Shown: positions 4,144 to 27,528 of the stretch, in pieces
Layout of the letters: every line of letters starts with the position of its first letter
Numbering within the stretch: the first letter of the stretch is position 1
Source: Armatimonadota bacterium
Lineage (GTDB): Bacteria > Armatimonadota > Zipacnadia > Zipacnadales > UBA5352
Direction of reading: 5' to 3'
Length of the DNA: 27,528 bases
Assembly: GCA_034722055.1 (NCBI GenBank)
Contig: JAYENL010000220.1
Coordinates: forward strand, 1-27,528
Program-made: the position numbers and the translations under genes
The notes under the pieces: model-generated
What the model was told of the DNA's origin: nothing
The model's input: only the letters and a program-made list of their open reading frames with translations
Database searches by the model: none

Positions 4144-4340
4144 GACATCCCCTCCCCGACGCGGATCGCACATCGCGCTCCCCTTCGCCGAGCAGTGGTC
4201 GCTCTCCTCGGGGCAAGGCCCCGAGAGCCGGTGTCAGCACATCGCAGCGGGACCCGAAAGGTGGCGTGGCGAGCTTCCGGGAAAGGAAGCGGCGGACAAC
4301 AGGCGCATAAGCCTCGTGCGACGGAGCGGGAGGGATACAC

Positions 4341-7253: not shown

Positions 7254-7313
7254 GTGTCGGACCCCCGGAGGCCTGCCGGTGGAGCTTTTCGTCGCGCATC
7301 AGAGGTGATCGTG

Positions 7314-11282: not shown

Positions 11283-13226
11283 TCAGAACGAGAAGATGAC
11301 GTGGCCGCGCACGCCGGCGATGATGTCCACCACCGCCCACAGGCCGGCGCTGAGGAACTCGCCGAAGATCAGCCCCAGGAAGCCCGGCAGCAGCCGCCGG
11401 TAGACGCGATGGCCGCCGAAACGCACCACTGCGCTCTTGATCAGCCAGCCGATGAGGATGGGGAACCAGAAGTTGATCATCGGCCAGGAGGCGCCCATCA
11501 GGTAGCCGATGGGGTGCAGCGGCCACCACAGGTAGGTGCGGTGCAGCGATACCAGCACCCACATCGACGCGGCGCCGACGGCGATCCTCGCGAAGGCCCA
11601 TGGCTGCGGCGGCTCCCCGCTGACGATCAGGTGGTTCGTCCAGGTGCAGTAGAGGTTCCGGGTGTAGTAGCTGGTGAACCACGTGTTCAGCGCTGTGCCG
11701 CCGTGGACGTACATCAGCCGCAGGTAGACCACGTACGAGACTACGATGGCGAGCCCCACGGCCGCCGCCAGCGCCCTGAAGAGCCCCCGGCGGTCGATCC
11801 CGCCATCCTCGGCGATGCGCATGCTCTGCATCAGCGACGGCATCAGCGGGCTGCGGTTATCGAGCATCAGCAGGTGGTCCAGCAGGGCCGTGATGGCGAT
11901 GGTAGGGCGGCTCAGGCCGCCGGTGCCCACTGCGGCCAGCATGATGTTCAGCGGCCGGTAGGGGTGCTGCACGTAGAGCATCCCGCCCTCGCAGACCAGC
12001 CGCACCGCGATGACGTGCATTGCGAAGTAGAGCAGGAAGAGCACGAGCATCGCCGCGGCGCTGGCCCCGGCGGAGACTCCCCAGGCCACGATCAGCGCCA
12101 GTCCGCCGAACGCTCCCCACACGGCGGTGGCGTAGGCCAGCGGCTCTCGGCGATCCTCCCTCGTGGAGCGCGACCCTCCCGCCAGCGTGCGCCGGGCCTC
12201 GGCCCACACCTGCCCCAAACGCTCCCTCGCCGCCAGCATCCCCAGGACGAGGTAGCACAGGATTCCCCCTGCCATCTGGTGGGCCACGAAGCCGCGGACG
12301 GGATAGGCCTGCACCGAGGGCATGGGCGCGCCCAGGGCCTCGCCGATGACCTGCTGGCCCAGAAAAAGGGAGTAGAACAGCCAAAGGCTGAAGGACAGCT
12401 CGGCGGGGAGGATGAAGGCCAGGCCGATGATGCTGAACAGGATCCGCAGCCGCAGCGGCCTGATCGCCGTCCAGGGCCGCTCGGTGATAGCCGGGTCCAG
12501 CGAGATCTGATGGACGTTGATCGTCGGGATGGCAGGGATGTAGAAGTGCAGGCCGTTGATGGTGTGAATCGCAAAGGGCACGGCGAAGAACGCCCACATG
12601 ATGCGGCTGGTGAAGAGCGTGGGGATCAGCGACGCACCGGACTCGTACTCCGCCATCTTCACGGGAAGCTGGATGAGCGGGAAGACCAGCTTCTCATCAT
12701 CGACCCAGCGGCGGCGGAGGATGGCGGTGAGGCAGAAGAAAACCGCGTAGACTCCCGCCGCCAGCACAGTCCACGCCAGCAGCGGCACGCCCCAGGCGCC
12801 CCACGGGATGGCGGCGCCGGGCCGCAGGCCCTCGTACAGCGCCTCCACCGGCTCACCCGACGGCGGGTGCAGCCACTCGGGAAGCAGGGGCCACAAAGTC
12901 TCGGCCCACTCGTTCTCCTCGGTTGCGAAGTAGAATGGTCCGGCCATGTAGGGGATCAGGAGGCCGGTGAGGCCGAAGCTGGGGATGCCGGCGGCCACCA
13001 GCATCATGCTGTAGACCACCAGCAGCTCGGCGGTGGTGAGGCCGACGCCCATCGCCCGCGGGATGACGTTGAGCGCGCCTGCGAGCACCACCAGGACGAA
13101 GAAGGCGCTGATGGGGAAGCTGGTGAGCCCCAGCCACGTGCCCTGCACCACCAGGTCGGCGTAGGGAGTGGCGACGGCGATGAGTAGAACGCAGATGATC
13201 CCGACGCTGAGCGCGCGATGCGTCAT
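11283..13226 (-). CDS. DUF6785/DUF6784 family polytopic membrane protein (OPT-like putative transporter), ~647 aa
   Basis: Start moved to ATG 13226 (GAGG about 7 nt upstream); the upstream ORF extension looks non-coding. Many hydrophobic TM segments. Family-type motifs: ELLVVYSMMLVA, IPWGAW..P, LRRRWVDDEKLVFPLIQLP, LSFSLW, RLVCEGG, WWPLHPIGY, GWLIKSAVVRFGG..YRR..P.FLGLIFGE. Confidence 0.85.
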   Translation of the reverse strand: MTHRALSVGIICVLLIAVATPYADLVVQGTWLGLTSFPISAFFVLVVLAGALNVIPRAMGVGLTTAELLVVYSMMLVAAGIPSFGLTGLLIPYMAGPFYFATEENEWAETLWPLLPEWLHPPSGEPVEALYEGLRPGAAIPWGAWGVPLLAWTVLAAGVYAVFFCLTAILRRRWVDDEKLVFPLIQLPVKMAEYESGASLIPTLFTSRIMWAFFAVPFAIHTINGLHFYIPAIPTINVHQISLDPAITERPWTAIRPLRLRILFSIIGLAFILPAELSFSLWLFYSLFLGQQVIGEALGAPMPSVQAYPVRGFVAHQMAGGILCYLVLGMLAARERLGQVWAEARRTLAGGSRSTREDRREPLAYATAVWGAFGGLALIVAWGVSAGASAAAMLVLFLLYFAMHVIAVRLVCEGGMLYVQHPYRPLNIMLAAVGTGGLSRPTIAITALLDHLLMLDNRSPLMPSLMQSMRIAEDGGIDRRGLFRALAAAVGLAIVVSYVVYLRLMYVHGGTALNTWFTSYYTRNLYCTWTNHLIVSGEPPQPWAFARIAVGAASMWVLVSLHRTYLWWPLHPIGYLMGASWPMINFWFPILIGWLIKSAVVRFGGHRVYRRLLPGFLGLIFGEFLSAGLWAVVDIIAGVRGHVIFSF

Positions 13227-13911: not shown

Positions 13912-16900
13912 ATGCGCTCCTCCAGGGTACTGCTGAGTCTCATCGCGGTCGTCGCAGCCTTCATCACCGTGGCCGGCGGGCCGGCCGCGGCGTACGAGAT
14001 GAGTGAGCCGTTCTACACGCTCACCGAGGAGTACGTCTCGCCGCACATCCCGTGGGCGAAGCCCTATGCAGGCGGGAAGATCAGGGCGCTCTTCGTGGTG
14101 CCGCGGGGGACGGCGCGCGAGGTGATTGAGGTCGCCGAGCGGCTGAGCATGGACTACGAGGTGGTCCTGACTCTCTCGGATACGGAGCTTGGCTGGACCT
14201 CCGCCTCCAGTCACTACGCGCTGGCCGAGGGCATCTCCCAAGAGGACATGATCACTCAGCTTCAGGAGAAGCTCTCCCGGGACTACGACGTCATCGTCAC
14301 CGGGCACCTGGACTGGGACATGTTCCCGCTGGAGCTGCTCTACCAGATGATGGAGAAGGTCCACGACGGCACCGGCCTGGTGCACTCCTACAGCGCCTTC
14401 GGCCGCAGCGACATCATGGACCGGGTCTTCGCCAAGCCGAGAATCGAGGCGCCGTTCGTGAGCGCGGGCGTGCCGTGGCAGGCGCTGCCCGTCTGGCGCG
14501 ACCTCGGCATCGAGACGGTGCTGGAGACGCGGCAGTTCCACGAGGGCCGCATGGCGCTGCTCAACCACGGTTCGACGCTGCCGCGCTTCATGTTCCTCAC
14601 GCCGAAGCCCGACGACACCGACTGGTCCTACCGCGAGCTGCATTATGAGTACTACCAGTCCCTGGCGATCAAGGCCATGCTCTGGGCGGCGAGGCGGGAG
14701 CCGCAGACGCTGATCGCGTCCATCGGCGTGGGCGGTCGGACCGTGGCGCGGTCAGACCTGCCGCAGACGCGGCTGACTGCACTGCTGTCGGGACCAACCG
14801 ACGGGCTGACGGCGCACCTCACGCTCCAGGACGAGGACAAGCGGCAGTACGCCGCCCAGCAGCAGCCTGTCACAGGCTCGGAGGTCAGCTTCGCGCTGCC
14901 GACCGTCCCTGCGGGCAGCTACTTCGCGGACCTGTCGCTGCGCAGCGACGACGGGGTCGTGAACTGGGGCTCGGTTGCCTTCACGGTCACGTCGGTGCCG
15001 TCGATACAGTCGGTGACGCTGGAGAATGCCCACGCTCAGCCGGGCGATACGGTCACGGCGCAGATCGCGCTGGGAGGTGCGCGGGTGCCGGCGGGCAGCG
15101 GCCTCACCGTCGAGGTGACTGACAACCTCGGCCGCGTCATCGCGCGCAAGTACCGGTCGCTTGGCGCGGGCATGGCCGAGGTGCAGGTGCCCTTCCGGGT
15201 GAGCAACCCCATTGCGCTGAGCGCGGACGTGCAGGTGAGCCTGCAGGTCGATGGTGAGACCATCGATCGTGACACCACATGGCTCTACACGCCGCTGCAG
15301 CGCACCCGTGGGACCTTCGCTCACGCGGTGTGGAGCGCGGTGCCCAACGGCAATGAGTTCGTGCGGCGGCTCATGTACCGGCAGCTCCACGAGTGCGGCG
15401 TGGACATGATGACCAACTCGCCCAGGGACGCGGAGCTTCAGTCGTGGGCGGCGCGCAGCAACTTCGACACGATCCCCTACTCCACGCGCTATCACTACTC
15501 GGGGGATGACCTGGTGCGCAAGCCCTGCCTGACCGATCCGGACTACCTCTCCGAGGAGCTGGGCAGGCTGGAGGAGCTGGGTGCCAGCCTGGGGCCCTAC
15601 AAGCCGCGCGCCTACACGCTCGGCGACGAGTGCTTTCTGGCGCGTGGGGGCACCGACGTGTGCTTCTCGGAGACCTGCGTGGCGGACCTGCGCCAGTGGC
15701 TGCGCGATGAGTACGACTCGGTGGATGCGCTCAACGACTCCTGGGGCACGGATTACGGCAGCTTCGAGGAGGCCGAGCCCATCACGCTGGCGGACGCCCG
15801 GGAGGCCGATCAGCCGGCGCGGTGGGTGGATCACCGCCGGCACATGGAGTTCGTCTACGCCCGGATGATGGCCCGGGCGCGGGAGGCCATCCGCAGGGGC
15901 GATCCCGGCGCCGAGGTGGGCTTCGACGGCCCCTTCGCGACCACCAGCTTCTCGGGCAACGACTGGTGGCGGCTGATGAGCGTGTTCGACATCTGCAACC
16001 TCTACGAGCGCCCGGAGGAGTGGGAGGCGGTTCGCTCCTTCGCGGATGAGGACGACCTGCTCGGCGTGTGGTACGGCGGCTACTTCCAGTATCGCACCGA
16101 GGACTCCGAGCGGCTGTGGCCGTGGCGCGCGCTGCTTAACGGCTTCAACAGCATGTGGTGGTACGCCGTCTACCACGGCCTGACCACCTGCCCCATGGAC
16201 GCAGTGACCCCCAGCATGACCATCTACGACCCATTCCGCTGGGCAAGCGAGGAGATCGCCGAACTCAAGCGCGGTCCCGCCAAGGCGCTGATGGAGGCCC
16301 AGCGGCTGCACGACGGCATCGCGGTGCACTACTCGCAGTCCTCGGTGCACGCCGCCACGTGGGACCCCACCTGGGGCGCGCTGGACAGCATCTGGCGGCA
16401 GACCTACCGGCTCCTGGAGGACATGGGGCTGCAGTACGACTGCTACGCCTACGCCCAGCTTGAGGAGCAGGGGCTTAGCCCGGAGGAGTATCCGGTCTTC
16501 CTGATGCCCTGCTCGCGCGCGATTTCCGAGACCGAGGCGCAGGCGATCCGCGAGTACGTCAACGCGGGCGGGACGGTCATCGCGGACGTGGAGCCGGCGG
16601 TGTGCGATCACCACGGCAGGCCGGTCACCCCGGGGCTGCTGGACGACCTTTTCGGCATCGAGCGCATCGATGGAGGCGGGCAGGTCACCGGCGCGACCGG
16701 CCTCATTGACGGCATGTTCGCCGACGAGGTGGAGCTGCCGGGCCTGGACGTTGACGGCAACGTGCGCGCCGACGGTGCCGAGGCGCTGGGGCACGCCGGC
16801 GAGGTGCCGCTGCTGCTGGTGAAGGAGACCGGCCAGGGTCGGACGGTGCTGCTCAACTACGGCTTCCCGGCCGCGGATCGTGCCCGGCTGGAGCCTGAGG

Positions 16901-17529
16901 CCTTGGACCACTGGCGGGTTCTGCGGGGCCTTCTCGCTATGGCGGGAGTGCAGCCGAGGGTCTCCGTGACCCTGAACGGAGAGCCGCTGCGGGCACTGGA
17001 GACGGTGCGCTACGCCGACGGGCCGGTGCACTACCTGGGCTTCATCAAGTATCGCACCGACGCCGAGGAGCAGAGCGCCGTCGGAGAGATCGCGACCGGG
17101 GAGGCCATGCACACCTGGGACGTGCGCACCGGAGAGTACCTCGGCGAGGTGGCCCGCTGGGAGAGCGAGTTCGTGCCCTCGCGCGGCAAGCTGTTCGCGC
17201 GGCTGCCCTATCGGGTCGAGGGGCTGACGCTGAATGTGCAGCGCGGGGCGGTGGCGGGCAACGAGCGGGAGACGCTGTGGGTCATCGCGTGTCCGATGCG
17301 ACTGCTCGCCGACACGGACGCGCCCGGCCGGCACTGGGTGCACGTGACGGTCATCGGACCGGACGGGCAGGAGCGCAGGCACTACGCCCGCAACGTGCCG
17401 CTGACGGACGGGGCGGGTGTGACCTACCTGCCGATGGCGCTCAATGACCCGCCTGGGACCTGGACGGTGCAGGCCCGGGACGTCATCAGCGGCCAGACCG
17501 CCCGCGCGACGTTTGAGTTGCCGCAGTGA
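13912..17529 (+). CDS. Large secreted GH42-like (beta-galactosidase-like) multidomain protein, ~1205 aa; paralogue of 19787-23422
   Basis: ATG 13912 follows AGGAGG and begins a signal peptide. N-terminal SPHIPWAKPY and GATase-like (YDVIV..DGTGLV) region, then Ig-like domains. GH42-type motif CFSETC..LRQWLRDEYDSVDALNDSWGT. Trimerisation-domain motif IREYVNAGGTVIAD. C-terminal Ig motif ALNDPPGTWTVQARDV. Confidence 0.85.
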   Translation: MRSSRVLLSLIAVVAAFITVAGGPAAAYEMSEPFYTLTEEYVSPHIPWAKPYAGGKIRALFVVPRGTAREVIEVAERLSMDYEVVLTLSDTELGWTSASSHYALAEGISQEDMITQLQEKLSRDYDVIVTGHLDWDMFPLELLYQMMEKVHDGTGLVHSYSAFGRSDIMDRVFAKPRIEAPFVSAGVPWQALPVWRDLGIETVLETRQFHEGRMALLNHGSTLPRFMFLTPKPDDTDWSYRELHYEYYQSLAIKAMLWAARREPQTLIASIGVGGRTVARSDLPQTRLTALLSGPTDGLTAHLTLQDEDKRQYAAQQQPVTGSEVSFALPTVPAGSYFADLSLRSDDGVVNWGSVAFTVTSVPSIQSVTLENAHAQPGDTVTAQIALGGARVPAGSGLTVEVTDNLGRVIARKYRSLGAGMAEVQVPFRVSNPIALSADVQVSLQVDGETIDRDTTWLYTPLQRTRGTFAHAVWSAVPNGNEFVRRLMYRQLHECGVDMMTNSPRDAELQSWAARSNFDTIPYSTRYHYSGDDLVRKPCLTDPDYLSEELGRLEELGASLGPYKPRAYTLGDECFLARGGTDVCFSETCVADLRQWLRDEYDSVDALNDSWGTDYGSFEEAEPITLADAREADQPARWVDHRRHMEFVYARMMARAREAIRRGDPGAEVGFDGPFATTSFSGNDWWRLMSVFDICNLYERPEEWEAVRSFADEDDLLGVWYGGYFQYRTEDSERLWPWRALLNGFNSMWWYAVYHGLTTCPMDAVTPSMTIYDPFRWASEEIAELKRGPAKALMEAQRLHDGIAVHYSQSSVHAATWDPTWGALDSIWRQTYRLLEDMGLQYDCYAYAQLEEQGLSPEEYPVFLMPCSRAISETEAQAIREYVNAGGTVIADVEPAVCDHHGRPVTPGLLDDLFGIERIDGGGQVTGATGLIDGMFADEVELPGLDVDGNVRADGAEALGHAGEVPLLLVKETGQGRTVLLNYGFPAADRARLEPEALDHWRVLRGLLAMAGVQPRVSVTLNGEPLRALETVRYADGPVHYLGFIKYRTDAEEQSAVGEIATGEAMHTWDVRTGEYLGEVARWESEFVPSRGKLFARLPYRVEGLTLNVQRGAVAGNERETLWVIACPMRLLADTDAPGRHWVHVTVIGPDGQERRHYARNVPLTDGAGVTYLPMALNDPPGTWTVQARDVISGQTARATFELPQ

Positions 17530-17559
17530 CATGAAGCGGCCTGTAAGGGAGAGTGCGCC

Positions 17560-18558
17560 ATGAGCCGCTGGCTGAGAATTGTGCTGTGCCTGACGGCCGC
17601 AATCGCCGCGGCGTGCACCTGGGCCCAGGAGCTCGGCGAGACCCGGGTGTACGAGTGCAAGCGCGCGGCCGAGCGGCCTGTGATCGACGGAAAGCTGACC
17701 GACGCCTGCTGGCAGGAGGCGGCCAAGACCGACCAGTTCGTGCGCGTGATGAAGGGCCCTCCGGAAATCCAGCAGACCGTGTTCCAGGCGGCCTACGATG
17801 ACGCGAATCTCTACCTCGCAGTCACCTGCATGGAGCCGCAGCCCGCCAACATCAAAGCCGCCGTCACCGCTCGCGACATGACGGCCGTCATGGGCGATGA
17901 CGCCATCGAGATCTTCATCCAGCCCGATCCGCCGGAGGGCGACTACTACCAGCTCTCGGCCAACTCCCTGGGCACCCTGTACGATGGGAAAGCCTTCGAG
18001 TCGGGCTGGAACGCCACGTGGCGGGCGGCCGGCTCGGTGGGCGAGGACGCCTGGTACCTGGAGTGCGCCATGGCCTTTCAGTCCCTGGGCGGCTATGGTG
18101 CGCCCGGAGCGGTGTGGGGCTTCAACGTCTGCCGGGACCGCCAGGCCGGGGGGCAGACGGAGTGGAGCGCGTGGTCGGACACCATGGGCGGCTTCCACAG
18201 CCCCGAGCGCTTCGGCCAACTGGTCTTCGCCGGGGCCGCCACAGGCGTGAACCGTAGTCTCATCATCGAGTCCTCCAACTACGCCCGGAGGAGCATCGAG
18301 CTGGAGGAGACCATCGGCGAGGCGCTGGCCGAGATCGAGGGCGGGCTGGAGCTGCTCCCCGAGGCCGAGCGGGAGCAGGTGGCGCCGACGGTCGAGGGCG
18401 CCCGGGAGGCCCTGGATGCCCTGCACCAGTTCCTGGAGCGGGATCAGCCGCTGGACCTGGAGGGCTGGATGCGTGTAACCGAGCGGCTCGAGGCATCGGC
18501 GGGCGAGGTTGAGCGCGCCATGTGGGTGATCCGCTTCGGCCGCCTGCTGGCCGACTGA
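17560..18558 (+). CDS. Secreted CBM9-like (carbohydrate-binding family 9-like) protein with a C-terminal helical domain, 332 aa
   Basis: RBS AAGGGAG and a signal peptide. Motifs: PVIDGKLTDACW, YDDANLYLAVTC, DDAIEIFI, WGFNVCR, FHSPERFGQLVF. The amphipathic helical tail ends WVIRFGRLLAD. Confidence 0.85.
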   Translation: MSRWLRIVLCLTAAIAAACTWAQELGETRVYECKRAAERPVIDGKLTDACWQEAAKTDQFVRVMKGPPEIQQTVFQAAYDDANLYLAVTCMEPQPANIKAAVTARDMTAVMGDDAIEIFIQPDPPEGDYYQLSANSLGTLYDGKAFESGWNATWRAAGSVGEDAWYLECAMAFQSLGGYGAPGAVWGFNVCRDRQAGGQTEWSAWSDTMGGFHSPERFGQLVFAGAATGVNRSLIIESSNYARRSIELEETIGEALAEIEGGLELLPEAEREQVAPTVEGAREALDALHQFLERDQPLDLEGWMRVTERLEASAGEVERAMWVIRFGRLLAD

Positions 18559-18623
18559 GGGCCGTACCCGCACGCGGGCGGCGACCGTCATCGATCCCTC
18601 CAGGCGTCGGAGGTGGGAGCGCC

Positions 18624-19781
18624 ATGCCAGGCCCCACAGGCGCTGTGCGACCCAGAACGAGATGGGCGTGGCGGGCCCTGACGCTGCTTGCCGCCGTGCT
18701 GGTGGCCTGGCCCGCCTGCGCGGACGAGCCCATCCTCGCCGCCCCCGTGCCCCTCACGCCCGATCCGCCGCAGATCGACGGCGTCCTCGACGACCCCTGC
18801 TGGGAGCGGGCCGTGCCGCTGGCGGAGTTCATGAAGGTGGGCAGCCACGCCCCGGCCTCCCAGCCCACCGTGGTGCGAGTGGTGCGCGACCGGCGGGCTC
18901 TCTACGTGGCCTTCGAGTGCTACGAGCCTCTGATCGACCACCTCGCGAGGGACCACACGGGGCACGACGCCGAGGTGTGGTTCGACGACTCCGTGGAGCT
19001 GTTCATCGATCCCACGCACAGCCACCAGCGCTACTACCAGTTCGCGGTCAACTGCGTTGGCGCGCGGTTCGACCGGCACATGGAGGATATCGACTGGACC
19101 GCCCCGTGGCGGGCCGCGACGCACATCGGCGAGGATCGCTGGAGCGTCGAGGTGGCCGTCCCGTTCGCGACGCTTGGCGTCCGTCCCCCGCAACCGGGTG
19201 ACGTCTTCGCCGCCAACTTCTGCCGCAACCGCAAGGCCTCTTCGCCCGAGAGCGCGATGCACGGGGAGTGGAGCAACTGGGCGCCCACGCAGTCCCAGTA
19301 TCACGAGCCGGAGCGCTTCGGGCACCTCATCTTCACCGACGCTGACGTGGCGGAGGTGCCCGCCTCGGCGCTCCGGGAGCTGGCCGAGAGCCCTCTGTGT
19401 GCCCGCGGCCTTCCCATGAGCCGCCCGGTGCGGCTGATCCTGCCTCGGGGAGTAATGGAGTATCAGCCCTATGTGGCGATGGCGCGGGCGTCGCTGGCCG
19501 AGGCGGAGTCCGCGCCGCGGCGGACGCTGGACGAGGTGGAGAAGCTGCTGGCCAGGCCCTGCCCGCTGGATCCGGAGCTGCGCGATGCGCTGCTGGCCAG
19601 GTTCAATGAGCTGGCGGACCAGGCGATACTGCTTCTCCGGGACGTCATGTCCGAGGGCGTGGATGCCGCGCAGCTTCAGGAGCTGAAGGCCACGCTCGCC
19701 GACCTGCAGTCACAGGCCGAGGAGCTGCTGTGGGAGGTCCGGTTTGAGCTGCTGTTCGCCGAGGTCACATCCGGCAGGTGA
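18624..19781 (+). CDS. Secreted CBM9-like protein with a C-terminal helical domain, ~385 aa
   Basis: Start moved to ATG 18624 (GGAGGTGGGAG upstream), which removes the overlap with the previous gene; signal peptide ends AWPACA. Motifs: PQIDGVLDDPCW, ALYVAFEC, DDSVELFIDP, NFCRNR, YHEPERFGHLIF. The tail ends WEVRFELLFAEVTSGR. Confidence 0.85.
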   Translation: MPGPTGAVRPRTRWAWRALTLLAAVLVAWPACADEPILAAPVPLTPDPPQIDGVLDDPCWERAVPLAEFMKVGSHAPASQPTVVRVVRDRRALYVAFECYEPLIDHLARDHTGHDAEVWFDDSVELFIDPTHSHQRYYQFAVNCVGARFDRHMEDIDWTAPWRAATHIGEDRWSVEVAVPFATLGVRPPQPGDVFAANFCRNRKASSPESAMHGEWSNWAPTQSQYHEPERFGHLIFTDADVAEVPASALRELAESPLCARGLPMSRPVRLILPRGVMEYQPYVAMARASLAEAESAPRRTLDEVEKLLARPCPLDPELRDALLARFNELADQAILLLRDVMSEGVDAAQLQELKATLADLQSQAEELLWEVRFELLFAEVTSGR

Positions 19782-19786
19782 TGGTG

Positions 19787-22700
19787 ATGGAGACGCGATT
19801 GGTGCTGATGGCGGTGGCGCTGATGATGGCGACGGGAGCCCTGGCGCGGCCCACAGAGTACGAGCCGCAGTTCCACGAGATCACTATGGACGTGGTCACC
19901 CCGCACGTGCAGTGGGGGAGACCCTACTACCGCGGCTCGGTCCGGGGGCTGATGATCGCGCCCAGGCCCTGCCACCGGGACACCGTGGAGCTGGCGCAGC
20001 GCCTGGACCTGGAGTTCGACCAGGTGGGGACCTACCTGCGCGATCAGCTCGGCGGCGGGGAGGACCGCGTCACGAGGATCGTGGGCTTCTCCCCCGAGGA
20101 CGTGAAGGCCCGCATGCTGGAGAAGCTCAGCGCGCGGCACGATGTCATCGTGGTGGGCAACCTGCACTGGGAGATCCTCCCCCAGGAGGTGGAGTACGAG
20201 ATCCTGCGGCAGGTGCGCAGCGGCGTGGGGCTGGTGCTCACCTACCACGAGAACGGGCGCAACCAGCACCTGGAGCGGGCGCTGGAGGTGGCCACGGAGG
20301 CCGACGACGGCGGCTTCATCACCCACGCGCTGCCGCTTACCGCACTGCCGGCGTGGGAGGGCTTCGGCTCGCACCAGGAGGCGGCCGACGCGCTCGTCGA
20401 TACGCGCGAGTTCGGCGAGGGCCGGATGGTGCTGCTGAACCTGGCGGGGGGCAGCAGTCAGACCTACCTCACCCCACCCACCGGCAGCGAGCACGCGTGG
20501 AAGTGGCGGCACCCCTGGCCGCTGGAGTACTACCTCATGCTCACCGGCCGGGCGGTGCTGTGGGCCGCCGGGATGGAGCCGGACGCGAGGATCGCGCAGC
20601 TTGGCCTGACGGGAGGCGACGAGGTCCTGGAGCTGCCCGCGGAGGCGGGTGCGGAGCTGGCGGTGCGGGTGACCGCCCAACGGCCGCACGAGGCGCTTGA
20701 GGCGGAGCTGACAGTGCGCGGCGGTGACGGCGAGGCGGTGGGCTCCGAGACGCAGCAGCTTGAGCTGACCGATGGCGAGGCCGAGGCGCGGTTTGCGCTG
20801 CCGGAGGGCCTGGCGGTGGGGCGGCACTTCGCGGAGGTCATCATCCGGGAGCAGGGCGGATGCGTCACCTGGGGCGCTGCCAGCTTTGTGGTGCGGCGCC
20901 CGAGGGAGCTGGCGGAGGTCTCGCGAGCGGTGGACTTCGCCGAGCCCGGCGGCGAGGCGGCGTTCCGGGCGGTGCTGGACGGTCCGGCACCGGCCGGGAG
21001 CGAGATTCGCTGGCGGATCACCGACAGCGCCGATCGCCTGCTGCACGTGGAGAGCACGCCCATCCCGGAGGGCGAGGAGGCCGCGAACCTGCGGCTGAGG
21101 GTGGAACACCCGCTGAGCAACGTGCTCATCGCGGAGGCGGAGCTGCGTGTGAACGGGGAGCGATGGGCGCGGCAGTTCGGCTGGCTGCCGGTGGACCTGA
21201 AGATACCGCCGGACGAGTTCAGCTTCCTGGTATGGGGCAATCCCAGCACGGAGTACGTCTGGCGCTACGTCCGCGACATCCTGCGGGAGCATGGCGTGGA
21301 CACAATGAACCACGGCCGGCCCAGGGAGACCGCGGCGGACGGCATGCGCACGCTGCCGGCGCAGCGGGTCGGCCTCCACCCCAACGAGGCCGAGGAGGTG
21401 GAGCTGGTCCGCAAGCCCTGCCTCAGCGGTCCGGAGCACCGCGCCAGGTGCAGGGAGCGGCTGCAGAAGACGGCGGAGGCGGCCCGGGGCTTTGGGGTGC
21501 CCGGCTACACGCTCGGCGACGACAACCGCCTGGGCAGCACCGACATCTGCTTCTCCGAGCACTGCCTGGCCGATCTCCGCGACTATCTGCGCCAGCAGTA
21601 TGACTCCCTGCAGGCGCTGAACGCGCAGTGGGGCACGCAGTTCGGCGAGTGGGGCGAGGCGACCCCTATCACGCTGCAGGACGCGCGGGAGAGCGATCAG
21701 CCCAGCAGGTGGATCGACCACCGCATGCACATGGAGAGCGTCTACGCCGACTTCCACGCCTTCGCGCGGGACGCCGTCCGCGAGATCGACCCGGAGGCGC
21801 GCGTGGGCTCGGACGCGGCCATCGGCCACGGCAGCTTCGGCGGCTACGATTGGTGGAAGTACTCCCGGGCAGTGGACGTCTGGAACGTCTACGTGCACCT
21901 GGAGCGGGTGGAGTGCCTGCGGGCCTTCAAGCGGCCGGAGACCTACTGCGGGCTGTGGTACGGGGGGTACAATCACATCTGGCGCTTCGAGGAGGGCTGC
22001 CGGTGGGTGCCGTGGTACTCCCTGCTGCACGAGCTGAACAGCGCGTGGTGGTTCAAGATCTACTCCTCGGCCCGAGAGCGCTGCCAGGAGGATGCCATTG
22101 CCGCGGACCTGACGGTCTTCCCCATCTTCGAGGCCACCGCGGACGCTATCGCCGAGATCCGGGCGGGGATCGACCGGCTGCTGCTCAACGCCGAGCGCGA
22201 CAACTGCGGCGTTGCGGTGGTCTACTCGCAGCCCAGCCTGCACGCGGCCACCTTCGAGGGCGAGGGCGGGCGCCACAGCGGAGCCGTTACCGGTTGTCTG
22301 AACCTCCTGGAGGACCTGGGGCTGCAGTACGATCTGGTCTCTTACGCCCAGCTCGACGGCGGGGAGTGGGGGGCTGAGGACTTCTCGGCTGTAATCCTCC
22401 CTGATGTGACGGCGCTGTCGGAGGCCGGCCGGAGACAGATCGAGGCCTTCGTCAGCGCCGGCGGCGCCCTGATCGCCGACCTGCGACCGGGCGTGCGCGA
22501 CGGCCACGGCAGGCCGGTCGATGACCCGCGCTGGGACCGCCTCTTCGGCGTCCGCCGGCGGGGCCTCGACGGACGAGAGGCCGCCGATCGCGTCAGCATC
22601 GACGGCAGCCTCCGGGGCGAGCGCATCGCCGGCGAGCTTGAGGGCGTCAGTGTGGACGGCGGCGTGATTCGAGATGGCGCACGAGCGCTGGGCAGCGCCG

Positions 22701-23422
22701 GGGACGAGGAGATGCCGATCTGCCTGGTCAGCGAGCACGGGGAGGGGTTCGCCTGCCTGCTGAACTTCGGCCTCGGCGCCTACGGCTCGAAGTCCGAGAG
22801 CGGCGCTGCCATGCGCGGGATCGTGGGCGGGCTACTGCGGGCGGCGGAGATTGCGCCGCTCGCCCGCGTGGAGGTCGCGGAGGGCGAGCTGCTGGAGGGA
22901 GAGGTGGTGACCTTCAGGGACGGCCGGGCGCGCTACGTGGCGGTGCTGAGGGATCACACGCCTGACGCACAGTCCCAGCGCATCACCGTATCGCTGCCGG
23001 AGGGCCACGAGGTCTACAACGTGCGGGAGGGCCAGTACCTGGGGCGCGTCACGGCCGTGGAGGCGGAGCTGGGCGAGGGCGAGGTGCTGCTCCTGGCGCT
23101 GCTGCCCTATCAGCCCGCGCCGCCGGAGATCGCCCTGGAGCCGGCTGGCGCCCGGCCCGGCGAGGCGGTGTCAGCATCCATCGCCGTCGAGACACCCAAC
23201 GGGGTGACGGAGCGCCATGTAGCGCACGTCACGGTGCGCGACCCCTCCGGTGCGGAGCTGGCCTGCCACGCCCGAGATGTGGTCCTGAGCGAGGGTCGGG
23301 GCACGGTGACCGTCCCGCTGGCGCTCAACGCTCCAACCGGGGCCTGGACGCTTCGGGCCCGGGACGTGGCCACGGGGCAGGTCGGCGAGGCGGCCTTGGA
23401 AGTCGCGGCGCCCGAGGAGTAG
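19787..23422 (+). CDS. Large secreted GH42-like multidomain protein, ~1211 aa; paralogue of 13912-17529
   Basis: Start is ATG 19787 (alternatives 19778, 19781, 19784), tightly coupled to the upstream stop, followed by a signal peptide. Motifs: TPHVQWGRPY, LVRKPCLS, CFSEHC..LRQQYDSLQALNAQWGT, IEAFVSAGGALIAD, ALNAPTGAWTLRARDV. Colinear with the first paralogue over its full length. Confidence 0.85.
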   Translation: METRLVLMAVALMMATGALARPTEYEPQFHEITMDVVTPHVQWGRPYYRGSVRGLMIAPRPCHRDTVELAQRLDLEFDQVGTYLRDQLGGGEDRVTRIVGFSPEDVKARMLEKLSARHDVIVVGNLHWEILPQEVEYEILRQVRSGVGLVLTYHENGRNQHLERALEVATEADDGGFITHALPLTALPAWEGFGSHQEAADALVDTREFGEGRMVLLNLAGGSSQTYLTPPTGSEHAWKWRHPWPLEYYLMLTGRAVLWAAGMEPDARIAQLGLTGGDEVLELPAEAGAELAVRVTAQRPHEALEAELTVRGGDGEAVGSETQQLELTDGEAEARFALPEGLAVGRHFAEVIIREQGGCVTWGAASFVVRRPRELAEVSRAVDFAEPGGEAAFRAVLDGPAPAGSEIRWRITDSADRLLHVESTPIPEGEEAANLRLRVEHPLSNVLIAEAELRVNGERWARQFGWLPVDLKIPPDEFSFLVWGNPSTEYVWRYVRDILREHGVDTMNHGRPRETAADGMRTLPAQRVGLHPNEAEEVELVRKPCLSGPEHRARCRERLQKTAEAARGFGVPGYTLGDDNRLGSTDICFSEHCLADLRDYLRQQYDSLQALNAQWGTQFGEWGEATPITLQDARESDQPSRWIDHRMHMESVYADFHAFARDAVREIDPEARVGSDAAIGHGSFGGYDWWKYSRAVDVWNVYVHLERVECLRAFKRPETYCGLWYGGYNHIWRFEEGCRWVPWYSLLHELNSAWWFKIYSSARERCQEDAIAADLTVFPIFEATADAIAEIRAGIDRLLLNAERDNCGVAVVYSQPSLHAATFEGEGGRHSGAVTGCLNLLEDLGLQYDLVSYAQLDGGEWGAEDFSAVILPDVTALSEAGRRQIEAFVSAGGALIADLRPGVRDGHGRPVDDPRWDRLFGVRRRGLDGREAADRVSIDGSLRGERIAGELEGVSVDGGVIRDGARALGSAGDEEMPICLVSEHGEGFACLLNFGLGAYGSKSESGAAMRGIVGGLLRAAEIAPLARVEVAEGELLEGEVVTFRDGRARYVAVLRDHTPDAQSQRITVSLPEGHEVYNVREGQYLGRVTAVEAELGEGEVLLLALLPYQPAPPEIALEPAGARPGEAVSASIAVETPNGVTERHVAHVTVRDPSGAELACHARDVVLSEGRGTVTVPLALNAPTGAWTLRARDVATGQVGEAALEVAAPEE

Positions 23423-23426
23423 ACTC

Positions 23427-23537
23427 GGGTGCGAACTCCAGATGTCGGTGGAACGCGCGGGCGGGGGCGCCCGCGCCCCAGTACTTATGTCGTTGCGGGC
23501 GCGCCCGCCCGCAACCGACAATCTCAGGCCGCACCCA
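23427..23537. mobile_element. Putative MITE/REP-like palindromic insertion (~111 bp)
   Basis: Terminal inverted repeats GGGTGCG (23427-23433) and CGCACCC (23530-23536). Flanking direct repeat TAGACTC (23420-23426 and 23538-23544). Two internal GCGGGCG-N4-CGCCCGC hairpins (23455-23476, 23492-23515). Confidence 0.5.
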
Positions 23538-23570
23538 TAGACTCCGCACACGCGAGCAGGAGGGACGCTG

Positions 23571-24713
23571 ATGCTGAGAGCTGTTGCGGTCACGGCCGTC
23601 ATCGCGCTTGCGGCGTGGGCGGTCGCGGCGGAGGACGCCGTGACCGTCTCGGTCAGCGGGCCGACTGAGGGCCATCTCGGCGCCTACAGGAACCACGAGG
23701 GGCATCCCACGAGGCGCTATGAGGCGTCGCTGAACACCGGCGCCACGCGCTATCGCTTCAACCACTGGGTGGATGTGCATCCCGATCACCGGCCGAAGGT
23801 CCTGCCGCTGGAGGGGATGATCGGGATGACCGCACCCACCGGGGCGAACTGGTACGGCAACGGCTTCCTGAACATCCACCTCGAGGGCGAGCAGGTTGGG
23901 ACCGTGCGGGTGCGGGCAGTGCGTGAGATGGAGAGTGGGGCGCGGGGGTCGGTGGACTTCGAGTGGCGGCGGCCGGAGGGGACCTGGCGAGTGCGCTTCC
24001 TGGCGCTGCCCCAGGGTGTTCGCCTGTTCTGCTCGGTGCGCTACTTCCCCGCTGGGCCCCCGGCCGACTGGCGGCTGCGCCTGGTCTGCTACCCCGGTCG
24101 GCAGACCCGCGACGGCCATCGCATGACGACGACCGCCGCGCGGACGCTGGAGCAGACCAGCACGGTGGAGCTGAGGCGGGCCGGGGAGTGGTGGCTGGCC
24201 ATCTACGACAGCGTCTACGACGCCGACCACGGTCACAGCGACGGCGGCACGGCCATGATCTACGCGCCCGAGGACGTCTCGGCGGCGAAGCTGGAGGTCA
24301 CCGACTACCCGGTGACGGTATGGCTGACCCCGTCCGGCCAACAGGTGCGTCTGATCTTCTGGGGCTCGTTCTTCGGCAGCAGCAACGCGGAGATCGTGGA
24401 GGAGATGCAACGGACTGCCGAGCAGCACCTGGAGGCGCTGCGGGGGACGCGGTTCATCCACCGCGCGGTCTTCGCCGATGACTGGCGGGAGCGGCAGGCG
24501 GAGATCGACCGACTGCTTGAGGCGCTGGGCCATCCCGCCGATCCAGGGCAGAGGGCCCGGGAGGTGCAGCGGGAGATCGCGGAGATCGTCTCGAGGCTGA
24601 GGGAGCGGCCCGGGGAGGCCGGCCCGGACGATGAGCCGCGACTGCTGGACCTTCTCCAACGCCAGGAGGCGGTGCTGTGGGACATGCGCTGGGAGGAGCT
24701 ATTGGGTGGGTGA
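23571..24713 (+). CDS. Secreted hypothetical protein (beta-rich domain plus C-terminal helical domain), 380 aa
   Basis: RBS AGGAGGG and signal peptide MLRAVAVTAVIALAAWAVAA. The body is rich in beta-strands, and the helical tail ends WDMRWEELLGG. Confidence 0.85.
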   Translation: MLRAVAVTAVIALAAWAVAAEDAVTVSVSGPTEGHLGAYRNHEGHPTRRYEASLNTGATRYRFNHWVDVHPDHRPKVLPLEGMIGMTAPTGANWYGNGFLNIHLEGEQVGTVRVRAVREMESGARGSVDFEWRRPEGTWRVRFLALPQGVRLFCSVRYFPAGPPADWRLRLVCYPGRQTRDGHRMTTTAARTLEQTSTVELRRAGEWWLAIYDSVYDADHGHSDGGTAMIYAPEDVSAAKLEVTDYPVTVWLTPSGQQVRLIFWGSFFGSSNAEIVEEMQRTAEQHLEALRGTRFIHRAVFADDWRERQAEIDRLLEALGHPADPGQRAREVQREIAEIVSRLRERPGEAGPDDEPRLLDLLQRQEAVLWDMRWEELLGG

Positions 24714-24730: not shown

Positions 24731-27526
24731 TCAGGAGTCTGCGCTGACGCTCTCGCGCTGCTCAGTCACATCCCGCCCCAGGGCGACGGAGCCGATGGAG
24801 CTGCCATCCTCGTCGTCGATGAGCCTGTGGGAGTTCCACGAGATGACGCGCTCGGTGCCATCCTTGCGGCGGATGATGGTCTCCCAGTTCTCGGCCATGC
24901 GGGCGCCGGCGATGACCGAGGTCATCATGTGGGTGACCTCCCGGCGGTAGCGCTCGTCGGGATACAGCCACTCCCAGACCTCATCGTGGCCCACCACCTC
25001 CTCGCGCGAGTATCCGCTGATCTCCTCGGCGGCGCGGTTCCACAGCACCACGTTCGCCTGCCTGTCGAGTGCCATCAGCCACACGTTGGCCTGTTCGATG
25101 AGGGAGTGGCGGAACTGCCGGAACTTCGCGAGGCTCTCCTCCGCGCTGCGGTGCTCGATGGTCTCGCCGATGCGCTTGGCGATGGTGTCGAGCAGCTCCC
25201 GCTCCTCGGCGGTGAACGGTCCCTCGAGGACCTCCGGGCGCTCCTCGTGGTAGCGGACCTCTATCTCGCCCACCGCCTCGGCGTTGACGGCGATCTCAGC
25301 GCTCTGGGTGGCGACGGGCGGGTAGGGGGATTCGCCGGCCTCGCGCTGGCGGTCCCAGACCCTGATGCGGGCGGTGGTGATGCCGGGGTGACGCCAGGCC
25401 GGAGGGATGGCGGCAACGGCGCCGGAGAGTATCTCGGTCAGCGTCAGGGCCGGATCCTCGCACAGGCGCCACACGGCGCACAGGCAGCGGAACTTCTTCA
25501 CCTGATCGCTGGCCTGAGTCCATCTGCGCTCCAGCGACTCCTGCTGCTGGGCGCGGTCGGTGATGTCGTAGCCGACGGCCAGGATGCTCTCCAGCTCGCG
25601 GTTCTCATCGCGGGCGTTGGCGGTAGACCATGAGATTATGCGCTGCTCGCCGCCGGCGGTCTGCACGACCAACGCCCTGTCTTCGAGGTCACCGCCGGCG
25701 CGCATGGCGCCAAGCACGTCAGGGAGCTGCTCCTGCAGCTCGCCGGGGAAGAGCGTCTCCCACCAGTTGCGATCGATAAGCCGCTCGGGCTCGTAACCGA
25801 GAATCTCCTCGCAGCTCCCGTAGACGGCCTTGGTTGTGCCGTCGGCCATGATCTCTGCGACCACCGCCGGGGCGCGGCTCAGAACAGTCGCGGCCCGCCG
25901 CCGCTCCTGCTCAACCGTCTCCTTCGCCGCCTCCAGCGCAGAGATGTCCATCATCGCCCCGATGATGCCGACGATCTTGCCCTCCGCCTCCCGGTGGGCT
26001 TCCTTACGGAAGGCATACAGGCGCCTGTCGCCATCCGCGCACGCTACCGTCGCCTCGTAGGCGACCTCGCCGCCTCGCATGAGCACGTCGCGGTCACGGT
26101 GCTTGAGTGGCTCCGAGACTCCTCCGGGGATCTGCTCCTCCAGCTCTCTCAGCGTCCTGCCGATAAGCTGCTCGCGAGGGAGGCCGAGGATGCGCTGGGC
26201 GAAGGCCTCGTTGCAGCTCTGGATACGCCCCTCCTCGTCGAAGAAGAACACCGGATACGGGATTCCGTCCAGCACCGCGCGCAGGTACGGGGCGCCCTCC
26301 TCCGCCCGGCGCTCTGCCTCTCCCAGTCGCTCCGCCATGCGATCGAGCTCAGCCCGAAGGTCCCCATCCTCGGCAGCCTCTACCTGCTTGAGCCGCTCCT
26401 CGAGCGCTTCCGCCTCCGCCAGCGACTGCGCGATCTCAGTCTCGTACTCCTCCCGCGCCAGCTTTCGCGCCTCGGCGGCCCTGTGCTCGGCGTCCTCGAG
26501 CTTCTCCTGCAACTCGTCGATGGTGGCCTGCTGCTCGGCGAGCGCCTTCTCCCGGGCCTCCGCAGCGCGGCGCTCGGCATCCTGGAGTTGTGCCGACAGG
26601 TCGTCTATCGTCGCCTGCTTCTCGGCCAGGGCGGCCTCACGGGCCTCCTGCACGCGGCGCTCGGCACTCGCCAGCTCGGACGACATCGCGGCCGCCCGTG
26701 CAGCGAACTCCTCCCGTGCCGCCTCCCGGGCCTGCTCCCGTGCCTCCTCGATCCGCTCCTCGTCCTCCGCAAGCTGCGCCTGCAGCTCCTCGATCCTCTC
26801 CTGCTGCTCGGCCAGGGCGCTCTCCCGTGCCTCCTGAGCGCGGCGGTCAGCATCGGCCAGTTGGCTCTTGAGGCTCTCGATCTCCTCTTGCTGCTCGGCG
26901 AGAGCGGCCTGCCGCGCCTGCTCGGCCCGCTCTTCCACCGCCGCAAGCTGCGCCTGGAGCTCGTCGATCGTCCCCTGCTGCTCGGCCAGGGCGCCCTGAC
27001 GGGCCTGCTCAACCCGCTCCTCCGCCTCTGCGAGCTGTGACTGGAGCTCCTTGATCTCCTGCCGCTGCTCCGCGAGGGCGCTCTCCCGTGCCTCCTGAGC
27101 GCGGCGGTCAGCATCGGCCAGTTGGCTCTTGAGGCTCTCCATCTCCTCTTGCTGCTCGGCGAGAGCGGCCTGCCGCGCCTGCTCGGCCCGCTCCTCCGTC
27201 TCTGCAAGCTGCGCCTGGAGCTCGTCGATCTTCCCCTGCTGCTCGGCCAGGGCGCCCTGACGGGCCTGCTCAACCCGCTCCTCCGCCTCTGCGAGTTGTG
27301 ACTGGAGCTGCTCGATCTCCTCCCGCTGCTCGGCCAGGGCGCTCTCGCGTGCCTCCTGGGCGCGGCGGTCGGCCTCCGCCAGTTGGCTCCGAAGGCTCTC
27401 GATCTCCTCTTGCTGCTCGGCGCGGGCGGCCTGGCGTGCTTGCTCAACCCGCTCTTCCGCCGCCGCAACCTGCGCTTCCAGCTCGTCGATCTCTCCCTGC
27501 TGGTCGGCGACAGCGATCTCACGGGC
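24731..27526 (-). CDS. Partial (5'-truncated) sensor protein: long repetitive coiled coil followed by PAS-PAS-GAF-like-PAS; no output domain in view
   Basis: The frame stays open beyond the ORF-track start (27142) to the window edge (AREIAVADQQGEIDELEAQ...). PAS/PAC motifs: CNEAF..LGLPREQLIGR..DIS; LGYEPERLIDRNW..GYDITDR; WNRAAEEISGYSREEVVG..GRDVTE. GAF-like motif: IPPAWRHP..ARI..GPFTAEERELL. Confidence 0.9.
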   Translation of the reverse strand, partial: AREIAVADQQGEIDELEAQVAAAEERVEQARQAARAEQQEEIESLRSQLAEADRRAQEARESALAEQREEIEQLQSQLAEAEERVEQARQGALAEQQGKIDELQAQLAETEERAEQARQAALAEQQEEMESLKSQLADADRRAQEARESALAEQRQEIKELQSQLAEAEERVEQARQGALAEQQGTIDELQAQLAAVEERAEQARQAALAEQQEEIESLKSQLADADRRAQEARESALAEQQERIEELQAQLAEDEERIEEAREQAREAAREEFAARAAAMSSELASAERRVQEAREAALAEKQATIDDLSAQLQDAERRAAEAREKALAEQQATIDELQEKLEDAEHRAAEARKLAREEYETEIAQSLAEAEALEERLKQVEAAEDGDLRAELDRMAERLGEAERRAEEGAPYLRAVLDGIPYPVFFFDEEGRIQSCNEAFAQRILGLPREQLIGRTLRELEEQIPGGVSEPLKHRDRDVLMRGGEVAYEATVACADGDRRLYAFRKEAHREAEGKIVGIIGAMMDISALEAAKETVEQERRRAATVLSRAPAVVAEIMADGTTKAVYGSCEEILGYEPERLIDRNWWETLFPGELQEQLPDVLGAMRAGGDLEDRALVVQTAGGEQRIISWSTANARDENRELESILAVGYDITDRAQQQESLERRWTQASDQVKKFRCLCAVWRLCEDPALTLTEILSGAVAAIPPAWRHPGITTARIRVWDRQREAGESPYPPVATQSAEIAVNAEAVGEIEVRYHEERPEVLEGPFTAEERELLDTIAKRIGETIEHRSAEESLAKFRQFRHSLIEQANVWLMALDRQANVVLWNRAAEEISGYSREEVVGHDEVWEWLYPDERYRREVTHMMTSVIAGARMAENWETIIRRKDGTERVISWNSHRLIDDEDGSSIGSVALGRDVTEQRESVSADS

Positions 27527-27528
27527 CT
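26450..27528 (-). repeat. 87-bp (29-aa) coding tandem repeat with a 261-bp higher-order period
   Basis: The unit is roughly ALAEQQxEIxELQxQLAEAEERAEQARQx. The landmark TTGGCTC recurs at 26861, 27122 and 27383 (261 bp apart). Units degenerate towards ~26450. Confidence 0.92.

Follow-up and report, generated by a model that had tools for sequence, protein, structure and literature searches.

In a 27,528-nucleotide stretch of DNA from an Armatimonadota bacterium (the window; contig JAYENL010000220.1), two very large proteins, here called the giants G1 and G2, are encoded beside three small proteins, S1, S2 and S3, which share a helical tail at their carboxyl ends. The tail was found to be a module carried by unrelated protein bodies, to fall into two classes, A and B, to be genetically coupled to the giants and to be fused to them in a few natural proteins. 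The reading that is favored, by a narrow balance, is that the tail would serve to dock subunits, encoded by genes of their own and likely non-catalytic, onto a single family of giants, which are GH42-like and probably secreted.

The first-pass annotation of the window had described three tail motifs, two PH..W..PY motifs in the giants and the gene order giant-small-small-giant-small. On re-check, the motifs matched exactly in sequence and position and the order was confirmed, with all five genes on the forward strand. The tails end in WVIRFGRLL (S1), WEVRFELLF (S2) and WDMRWEELL (S3), with the tryptophan 11-16 codons ahead of the stop, and the G1 motif, SPHIPWAKPY, begins at 14038. A crude hydropathy check showed a hydrophobic, signal-peptide-like start in all five proteins. 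Compared from end to end, G1 and G2 share 35% of their residues; for S1 and S2 the identity is 34% over 273 residues. Two of the small proteins had been assigned CBM9-like bodies and the third an unrelated one, which was borne out: CBM9_1 was matched in S1 and S2 at 53.9 and 55.3 bits (Pfam cut-off 23.4), and the Pfam search of the window proteins returned no match for S3, the body of which is a β-supersandwich and not a carbohydrate-binding module. The tails had also been called near-identical. This is true of the last helix; over the whole module, the other two are only 27-31% identical to S3, and the resemblance of S3 to S2 is confined to the last 22 residues.

The tail was defined as a C-terminal module of about 90 residues ending in W-x-h-[RK]-h-x-x-L-L, where h is hydrophobic. 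The strict motif occurred in the last 25 residues of 3 of 7763 six-frame open reading frames of at least 250 residues in the genome containing the window (G000), as compared with a mean of 0.01 in shuffled sequences, a chance test made post hoc, since these same three window proteins had supplied the motif. A relaxed motif and profiles identified nine tail genes in this genome, and later a tenth; when the nine own-genome tails then known were left out one at a time, four of the nine ranked first. Regions were fetched around 80 of 366 giant matches, chosen from the best 150, and an iterated tail profile was run over the 4572 closed open reading frames of these regions, ten loci of G000 and the window. 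The profile converged on 99 matches, separated from the remainder by a score gap of 35 vs. 15 bits. One match, L089, arose from unknown bases and was removed as an artefact, leaving 98 family members. The tail is conserved among orthologues in the fetched loci. The tryptophan is present in 79 of the 98, the arginine or lysine in 83, the first leucine in 80 and the final leucine or phenylalanine in 91; the strict expression derived from the window fits just 7.

A search of 1.84 billion representative proteins with the tail profile gave 124 matches. The tail was C-terminal in 117 of these, and the remaining 7 were generic coiled coils. The bodies of the 98 family members are CBM9-like (48), S3-like (43) or CBM4-like (7), the last label being a reading of the sequence with no family match. 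Those of the 65 C-terminal library matches of at least 220 residues are S3 (37), CBM9 (24), CBM4-like (3) and, by eye, LamG-like (1). The last of these, P0078, lies on a short contig and has a B-like tail on a LamG/concanavalin-like body. The tail therefore caps four unrelated bodies, CBM9-like, β-supersandwich, CBM4-like and LamG-like, in agreement with the earlier suggestion of a portable module. It was present in 41 of 401 genomes in a sample of the phylum, and among 20 members that were looked up, those bearing a taxon name are three from Lentisphaerae and one from Planctomycetota. In a divergent giant subfamily (L120 of G075, L100, L112 and L109), the neighboring proteins end in tail-like helices that fall below the threshold; the tail family may thus be larger than counted.

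The tail is predicted to be a three-helix bundle. In the AlphaFold model of S3 (predicted local distance difference test, pLDDT, 95.5; predicted template modelling score, pTM, 0.93), the β-supersandwich is followed by helices of 16, 23 and 26 residues. We infer from the sequences that the last helix has one face toward the bundle core and a second hydrophobic stripe at its end, formed by the tryptophan and positions +4, +7 and +8, with the arginine or lysine at +3. No family was matched by the tail in Pfam, NCBIfam or the PDB, where the sequence matches were designed or generic helical bundles; a characterized domain is thus not recognized in it. When 82 tails were compared with Pfam, 74 families appeared at E 0.1, none of them matching more than 4 members. 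The first-pass annotation had also excluded the known C-terminal sorting and attachment elements, and the same result was obtained here. An LPxTG motif, VPEP motif or basic end was found in 0 of 187 tails, and the maximum 19-residue hydropathy in these tails was 1.4 (threshold 1.6), arguing against a transmembrane helix. T9SS-CTD and SLH domains were not matched by Pfam or NCBIfam in the five window proteins, and a dockerin was found neither in the Pfam matches of S1-S3 nor among the 25 families listed for the 82 tails. The titles and abstract openings of the literature searched contained no description of the module, subscription journals being mostly outside the coverage.

The tails fall into two classes that go beyond the first-pass annotation. 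Class A comprises the tails on supersandwich and CBM4-like bodies, and class B those on CBM9-like bodies. On the tail tree, the division by body requires 2 changes vs. about 33 in shuffles; the tree is built from few columns and has many open forks, and the classes are not established as monophyletic. With the giant subfamily held out, supersandwich tails were assigned to A in 43 of 43 cases and CBM9 tails to B in 41 of 48. Among 129 giant open reading frames, 38 have both classes beside them, 23 have A only, 25 have B only and 41 have neither. Each giant's neighbors follow a rule of at most one A and one B, the window excepted: only there do two tails of the same class occur at one giant, S1 and S2 lying between two giants. 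The A and B pair is retained across subfamilies even though the gene order differs, and within whole subfamilies one class is usually present alone, B in the G1 subfamily and A in the E1 subfamily. S1 is the conserved downstream partner of giants of the G1 subfamily, S2 is the upstream partner of G2, and the order S2-G2-S3 was found again in L058 (genome G057). The most fitting division of the window is into G1+S1 and S2+G2+S3, two units that the first-pass annotation had likewise not described.

Genetic coupling of tails and giants was evident at several levels. A survey of 79 genomes of the class, many of them incomplete and some related too closely to count as independent, found giants in 66 and tails in 46, all 46 among the 66; none of the 13 genomes without a giant had a tail. 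The co-occurrence with PH..W..P giants that the docking proposal implied is thus seen, and at the level of genomes the tail does not occur independently of them. In G000, 10 of 10 tail genes adjoin a giant of GH42/GH164 fold, in five loci. The tenth opens contig C138, which is joined by 126 identical bases to the end of C150, where a giant ends. Many other contig ends of G000 overlap in the same way. By comparison, a CBM9-like domain is present in 54 open reading frames of this genome. In all loci examined, 130 of 170 tail genes lie at most 1.7 kb from a giant, in a set that includes a few overlapping loci and is enriched for adjacency by design. For another 27, with no giant in view, the available DNA ends less than 1.7 kb away on one side or both. 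In the reverse test, 32 of the best 150 tail matches (204 in all) were on contigs without a listed giant nearby; when these regions were fetched, a giant was found for 7, and most of the others are near contig ends. Furthermore, the best hit of a tail protein in another genome predicted the subfamily of the neighboring giant in 122 of 130 cases. The pairings therefore look dedicated, although linked inheritance would give the same pattern; with partners that track the giant subfamily, the earlier proposal of exchangeable subunits is not supported.

A few loci have other peculiarities. Two genes with prepilin-type N-terminal cleavage sequences lie directly upstream of a CBM4-tail gene (L126:1146-2708), and other loci of the L126 subfamily seem to have short genes like these ahead of them. 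Giants or tail genes are split into two frames or fragments in L154, L209, L141 and L221:15298-15525, which may be assembly errors or pseudogenes, and L221 also has a short second copy of a tail end.

Natural fusions join the same parts in one chain. In genome G248, a single open reading frame (L224:8583-10874, minus strand; a single record) encodes a signal peptide, a CBM9 body, a complete B tail, about 30 residues and the amino-terminal module of the giants (N-module), and then runs into unknown bases. In P0127 and P0184, the order is giant, S3 body and A tail; these chains of about 1640 residues are 79% identical and were found on 1 and 6 contigs, respectively. P0127 has no internal signal-like stretch and is 85% identical to a Planctomycetes record. 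All three depart from the motifs: the G248 protein has histidine at position 116 of the N-module and leucine for the arginine or lysine of the tail, and the other two have, in turn, glutamine for the tryptophan and valine-threonine for the two leucines. These changes would fit, anecdotally, a relaxed demand for docking once the parts are linked. Bodies are also fused to giants that lack a tail, the S3 body in L008, L110, L111, L188, L190, L200 and P0202, and the CBM9 body in L010 and L201. Such fused bodies, placed ahead of the N-module and without a tail, are frequent among giants that have no tail neighbor. Two long tail frames in G154 were rejected as fusions: L153 is a shadow frame, and L154 shifts frame into a gene that has a signal peptide itself.

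A candidate contact site on the giant was sought by comparing five tail-associated giant subfamilies with 16 tail-less giants. The N-module positions picked were Tyr116 (100% vs. 1 of 16), Leu9, Phe33 and Gln115, along with barrel positions such as 744 and 753, which are equally possible sites. The sole exception at Tyr116 was the giant of C150, later found to adjoin a tail gene. Among 92 giants, tyrosine or phenylalanine occupied position 116 in 65 of 65 that are adjacent to a tail, and 16 of 16 with other residues had no adjacent tail. When more loci were added, tyrosine or phenylalanine was present in all 10 of the 10 new giants adjacent to a tail, and 23 of 29 giants from tail-less genomes (4 of the 29 repeating earlier loci) did not. 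Inter-protein covariation was calculated for 59 A and 57 B pairs (effective number about 40); the top 40 couplings were spread over the giant roughly by domain size and therefore uninformative. A giant subfamily (L006, L213, L214 and P0187-P0196) has an insert of about 160 residues, CBM4-like by eye, in the N-module after about position 136, and keeps Tyr116 and, where seen, an adjoining B tail. In G248, a giant homologue (L226:4688-7684, minus strand) starts at about model position 168, so that most of the N-module is missing, and has no tail gene nearby.

The predicted structure of G1 is confident and consists of an alpha/beta N-module (1-232), two immunoglobulin (Ig)-like domains, a TIM barrel, a GH42M-like domain, a β-sandwich and a last Ig-like domain. 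Fold searches were run with G1 435-1072 and S3 1-324. Residues 436-1070 of G1 matched GH42 and GH164 structures, and the clan GH-A architecture of GH42, a barrel with a trimerization domain and a β-sandwich, is present in the giant. The S3 body resembled supersandwich domains known from solved structures of larger enzymes, of which they are parts. Pfam Glyco_hydro_42 scored above its cut-off, but over only about 115 residues. The N-module, of which there are 13 matches in G000, matched no Pfam or NCBIfam family, and an Atlas lead to a GATase1-like match reached only 0.86. A candidate origin as a duplicate of the GH42M domain was not supported, the hhalign probability being 32% over 25 columns.

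The putative active site differs from that of GH42. The catalytic residues of clan GH-A are at barrel strands 4 and 7, according to an excerpt of PMC7105311. In the giants, Glu545 of G1 aligns with the glutamate of the GH42 asparagine-glutamate pair that is the acid/base, and is preceded by aspartate in 75 of 76 giants. The second residue of the strand-4 pair is glutamate in 72 of 76 and aspartate in 4, G2 (21518-21523) among them. No column with more than 80% aspartate or glutamate was found at model positions 678-752 for the strand-7 nucleophile; the profile alignment has a gap where the GH42 residue would be, and the balance leans toward its absence. Position 644, on the strand after the pair, is a conserved glutamate or aspartate, glutamate in 62 of 76 and aspartate in both G1 and G2. 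From these alignments, the strand-7 nucleophile of clan GH-A seems to be missing throughout the giants, and we would call the giants GH42-like rather than GH42. They are probably sugar-cleaving and may constitute an undescribed enzyme family with non-standard catalytic residues. A consecutive Asp-Glu pair is described, in a portion of PMC11087588, as a mark of substrate-assisted GH123-type enzymes. N-acetylated sugars are therefore suggested as substrate, as a lead only, by analogy. DUF4091, the GH123-type domain, was not matched by Pfam in the giants.

The mechanism proposed for docking can be outlined as follows. All parts would be exported by Sec, and each giant would then take up at most one subunit of class A and one of class B. 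In the tail, it is the long last helix that would offer its W/[RK]/L/L stripe to the giant, with the contact probably on the N-module, around helix 112-123 (Tyr116) and Leu9. Docking would thereby supply in trans the kinds of domain that other giants carry covalently ahead of the N-module, with the bodies possibly serving in substrate targeting, or else in stabilization or activation. In the window, the predicted complexes are G2+S2+S3 and G1+S1. A wider proposal would see here a code, free of cohesins, by which secreted glycoside hydrolases of Armatimonadota are assembled: the giant itself would be the hub, with one A and one B tail bound on its N-terminal domain, targeting modules would be swapped gene by gene, and fused and docked forms would interchange in evolution. 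This is possible, but we regard it as rather doubtful.

Several observations weigh against docking. The tail is kept in three fusions and is therefore not simply a replacement for a linker; it may have a structural role of its own. S3 and CBM9 bodies also occur on unrelated enzymes. For example, an S3-type supersandwich without a tail is at the N-terminus of an unrelated large family in G000 (C248:4003-7236 and C38:97928-101422). The fusion logic is therefore not specific to the giants, and these bodies are general accessory domains. The count of adjacent genes is inflated because the tail profile was trained on giant neighbors, and 13 of the 170 tail genes are clearly displaced, with at least 1.7 kb of giant-free DNA on both sides, so that at the level of loci the tail is partly independent of giants. 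For 5 of the 13, the same genome has a giant of the same subfamily without a neighbor of that class (one at only 39% identity); for the other 8, no matching giant was found among the loci examined, which do not cover all giants. The link to Tyr116 was found post hoc. Eleven of the 92 giants have tyrosine or phenylalanine but no detected tail neighbor (6 are at contig edges), as do 6 of the 29 giants from tail-less genomes. An independent-contrast test of Tyr116 vs. tail adjacency yielded 2 pairs only (p 0.5); the trait changes just twice on the giant tree, and the correlation is therefore without statistical support. The class division also has weak points: with the giant subfamily held out, CBM4-bodied tails were assigned to A in only 4 of 7 cases, and in one subfamily the assignment was ambiguous for 7 of 12 CBM9 tails.

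The possibility was considered that A and B tails pair together or self-associate, forming a two-domain accessory unit that contacts the giant via its bodies or only loosely. Three-helix amphipathic bundles often oligomerize, and this arrangement would be consistent with the 38 giants that have both paralogous classes, with an A and B pair that lies side by side in L163 without a nearby giant, and with the retention of tails in fusions. However, 48 giants adjoin one class only, including whole subfamilies that are usually single-class, the B tail of G248 is fused directly ahead of the N-module, and the Tyr116 pattern would be left unexplained. Tail pairing of this kind is considered unlikely.

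Less probable is that the tail belongs to the basic structure of an ancestral family of small proteins, in which the bodies were exchanged later. The small proteins would then act in the same pathway as the giants, perhaps as free binding proteins, without a stable complex, and the adjacency would reflect co-regulation. The high pTM of the S3 model suggests rigid packing of the tail on its own body, some tail genes are displaced, and operon inheritance alone accounts for the subfamily matching. However, the same C-terminal stripe is conserved on four unrelated folds, for which packing on the body would give no reason, fusions with giants exist in two different arrangements, and the other CBM9-like proteins of the genome are all without a tail.

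It is improbable that, once bound to the giant, the tail proteins regulate it or help it to fold, for instance as an inhibitor, activator or chaperone, instead of targeting it to substrate. The pairing by subfamily and the likeness of the S3 body to supersandwich parts of larger enzymes are consistent with such a role, but the bodies are CBM-like or associated with carbohydrate enzymes, and related giants carry them as covalently linked accessory domains. The last alternative, a C-terminal export or surface-sorting signal, which had been offered in the first-pass annotation, might explain the terminal position in the library matches and the prepilin-type genes upstream of one inspected tail locus, L126, but is very improbable given that the tail is limited to ten G000 genes, all beside giants, the giants themselves have none, the tail is internal in the G248 fusion, and a transmembrane segment and a basic end are lacking.

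Docking as favored here fits with the portability, conservation, co-occurrence and fusions of the tail; the term cellulosome-like, which had been attached to it, is not supported, since no scaffoldin, cohesin or dockerin was matched in the proteins compared and there is one N-module per giant. Nor is support found for calling the subunits sugar-binding, the S3 body being no CBM. What is known of the non-covalent assembly of bacterial enzymes that degrade polysaccharides comes mainly from cohesin-dockerin systems, such as the cellulosome and the amylosome. As there, a short, portable terminal module would attach varied bodies to a larger carbohydrate-active partner. However, the tail consists of three long predicted helices, with no calcium-loop motif matched, the putative enzyme, which has just one N-module, would itself be the hub, the subunits that dock onto it appear to be non-catalytic, and the gene pairing sorts by subfamily, not promiscuously. 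No cohesin was matched by Pfam in G1 or G2, the rest of the genome not having been searched; divergent cohesins can evade sequence search, as noted in an extract of PMC13463774.

The giants share the fold of the GH42 β-galactosidases and the GH164 β-mannosidase, which are clan GH-A trimers, at 12-17% identity. They are set apart by the N-module and by three Ig-like domains, by Asp-Glu or Asp-Asp in the place of Asn-Glu, and by the absence of a conserved acid from the assigned strand 7. Separately encoded subunits are not mentioned in the excerpt of the GH164/GH42 account (PMC7105311). With the GH123-type hexosaminidases, the giants have in common a consecutive Asp-Glu at the barrel and no obvious separate nucleophile, but the giant fold is GH42-like. 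GH20 and GH84 also comprise hexosaminidases with this motif. The terminal docking domains of modular polyketide synthases (PKS) are likewise short C-terminal helical modules that substitute for a covalent link and form classes with dedicated partners. They act in another compartment on other cargo, and a PDB sequence match to one of them, 1pzq, was weak and not significant (E 0.15). LPXTG, PEP-CTERM, T9SS-CTD and SLH elements resemble the tail in their C-terminal position on proteins with signal peptides, but the tail is on very few proteins per genome. In function, the tail system would resemble the docking pairs of cohesin-dockerin and PKS systems; as far as tested, it belongs to neither.

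Modular docking of carbohydrate-active proteins is a known principle; the parts described here are new. If docking is correct, they would constitute a second, unrelated docking pair, a 90-residue helical tag with two classes and a 230-residue receptor domain, in several subfamilies. This would extend enzyme assembly to poorly studied phyla, give roles to two unannotated domains and possibly provide engineers of enzymes with docking tags that are small and orthogonal. Testing the claim would cost little, since the domains, the candidate residues and natural fused controls have all been identified.

Table 1. Positions in the window of the giants, the tail proteins and their principal features.
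Feature	Positions	Strand	Description or basis
Giant G1, 1205 residues	13912..17529	+	signal peptide, N-module, 2 Ig-like, TIM barrel, GH42M-like, β-sandwich, Ig-like
G1 N-module, model residues 1-232, alpha/beta, candidate docking site	13996..14691	+	model and sequence
G1 Tyr116, on helix 112-123 of the model	14341..14343	+	comparison of giants
G1 Asp544-Glu545 (LGDE), end of barrel strand 4; Glu aligned with GH42 acid/base	15625..15630	+	
S1, 332 residues	17560..18558	+	signal peptide, CBM9-like body (residues 42-224), class B tail
S1 tail, class B	18271..18555	+	W at 18523
S2, 385 residues	18624..19781	+	signal peptide, CBM9-like body (residues 51-238), class B tail; ATG at 18624 after GGAGGT
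S2 tail, class B	19494..19778	+	W at 19731; most divergent of the three in the window
Giant G2, 1213-1214 residues	19778..23422	+	TPHVQWGRPY at 19898; Tyr at 116-equivalent (20195); Asp-Asp at strand 4 (21518)
S3, 380 residues	23571..24713	+	signal peptide, β-supersandwich body, class A tail
S3 tail	24480..24707	+	W at 24678; predicted helices 24480-24527, 24537-24605, 24630-24707 (AlphaFold)

The remaining genes of the window include three that encode large, secreted-looking proteins without the tail. The first (691-4173, minus strand) is GHL15/GHL6-like with a C-terminal CBM9-like domain, the second (4341-7253, plus strand) is GHL6-like with a GH42M-like domain, and the third (7254-11279, plus strand) has NPCBM-associated and CARDB-like matches. 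A membrane protein with DUF6785 and DUF6784 (11283-13226, minus strand) is transcribed divergently from G1. Downstream of S3, a large protein that is open at the window end (24731-27528, minus strand) has N-terminal tandem repeats of a charged coiled coil, followed by several domains that look PAS-type by eye.

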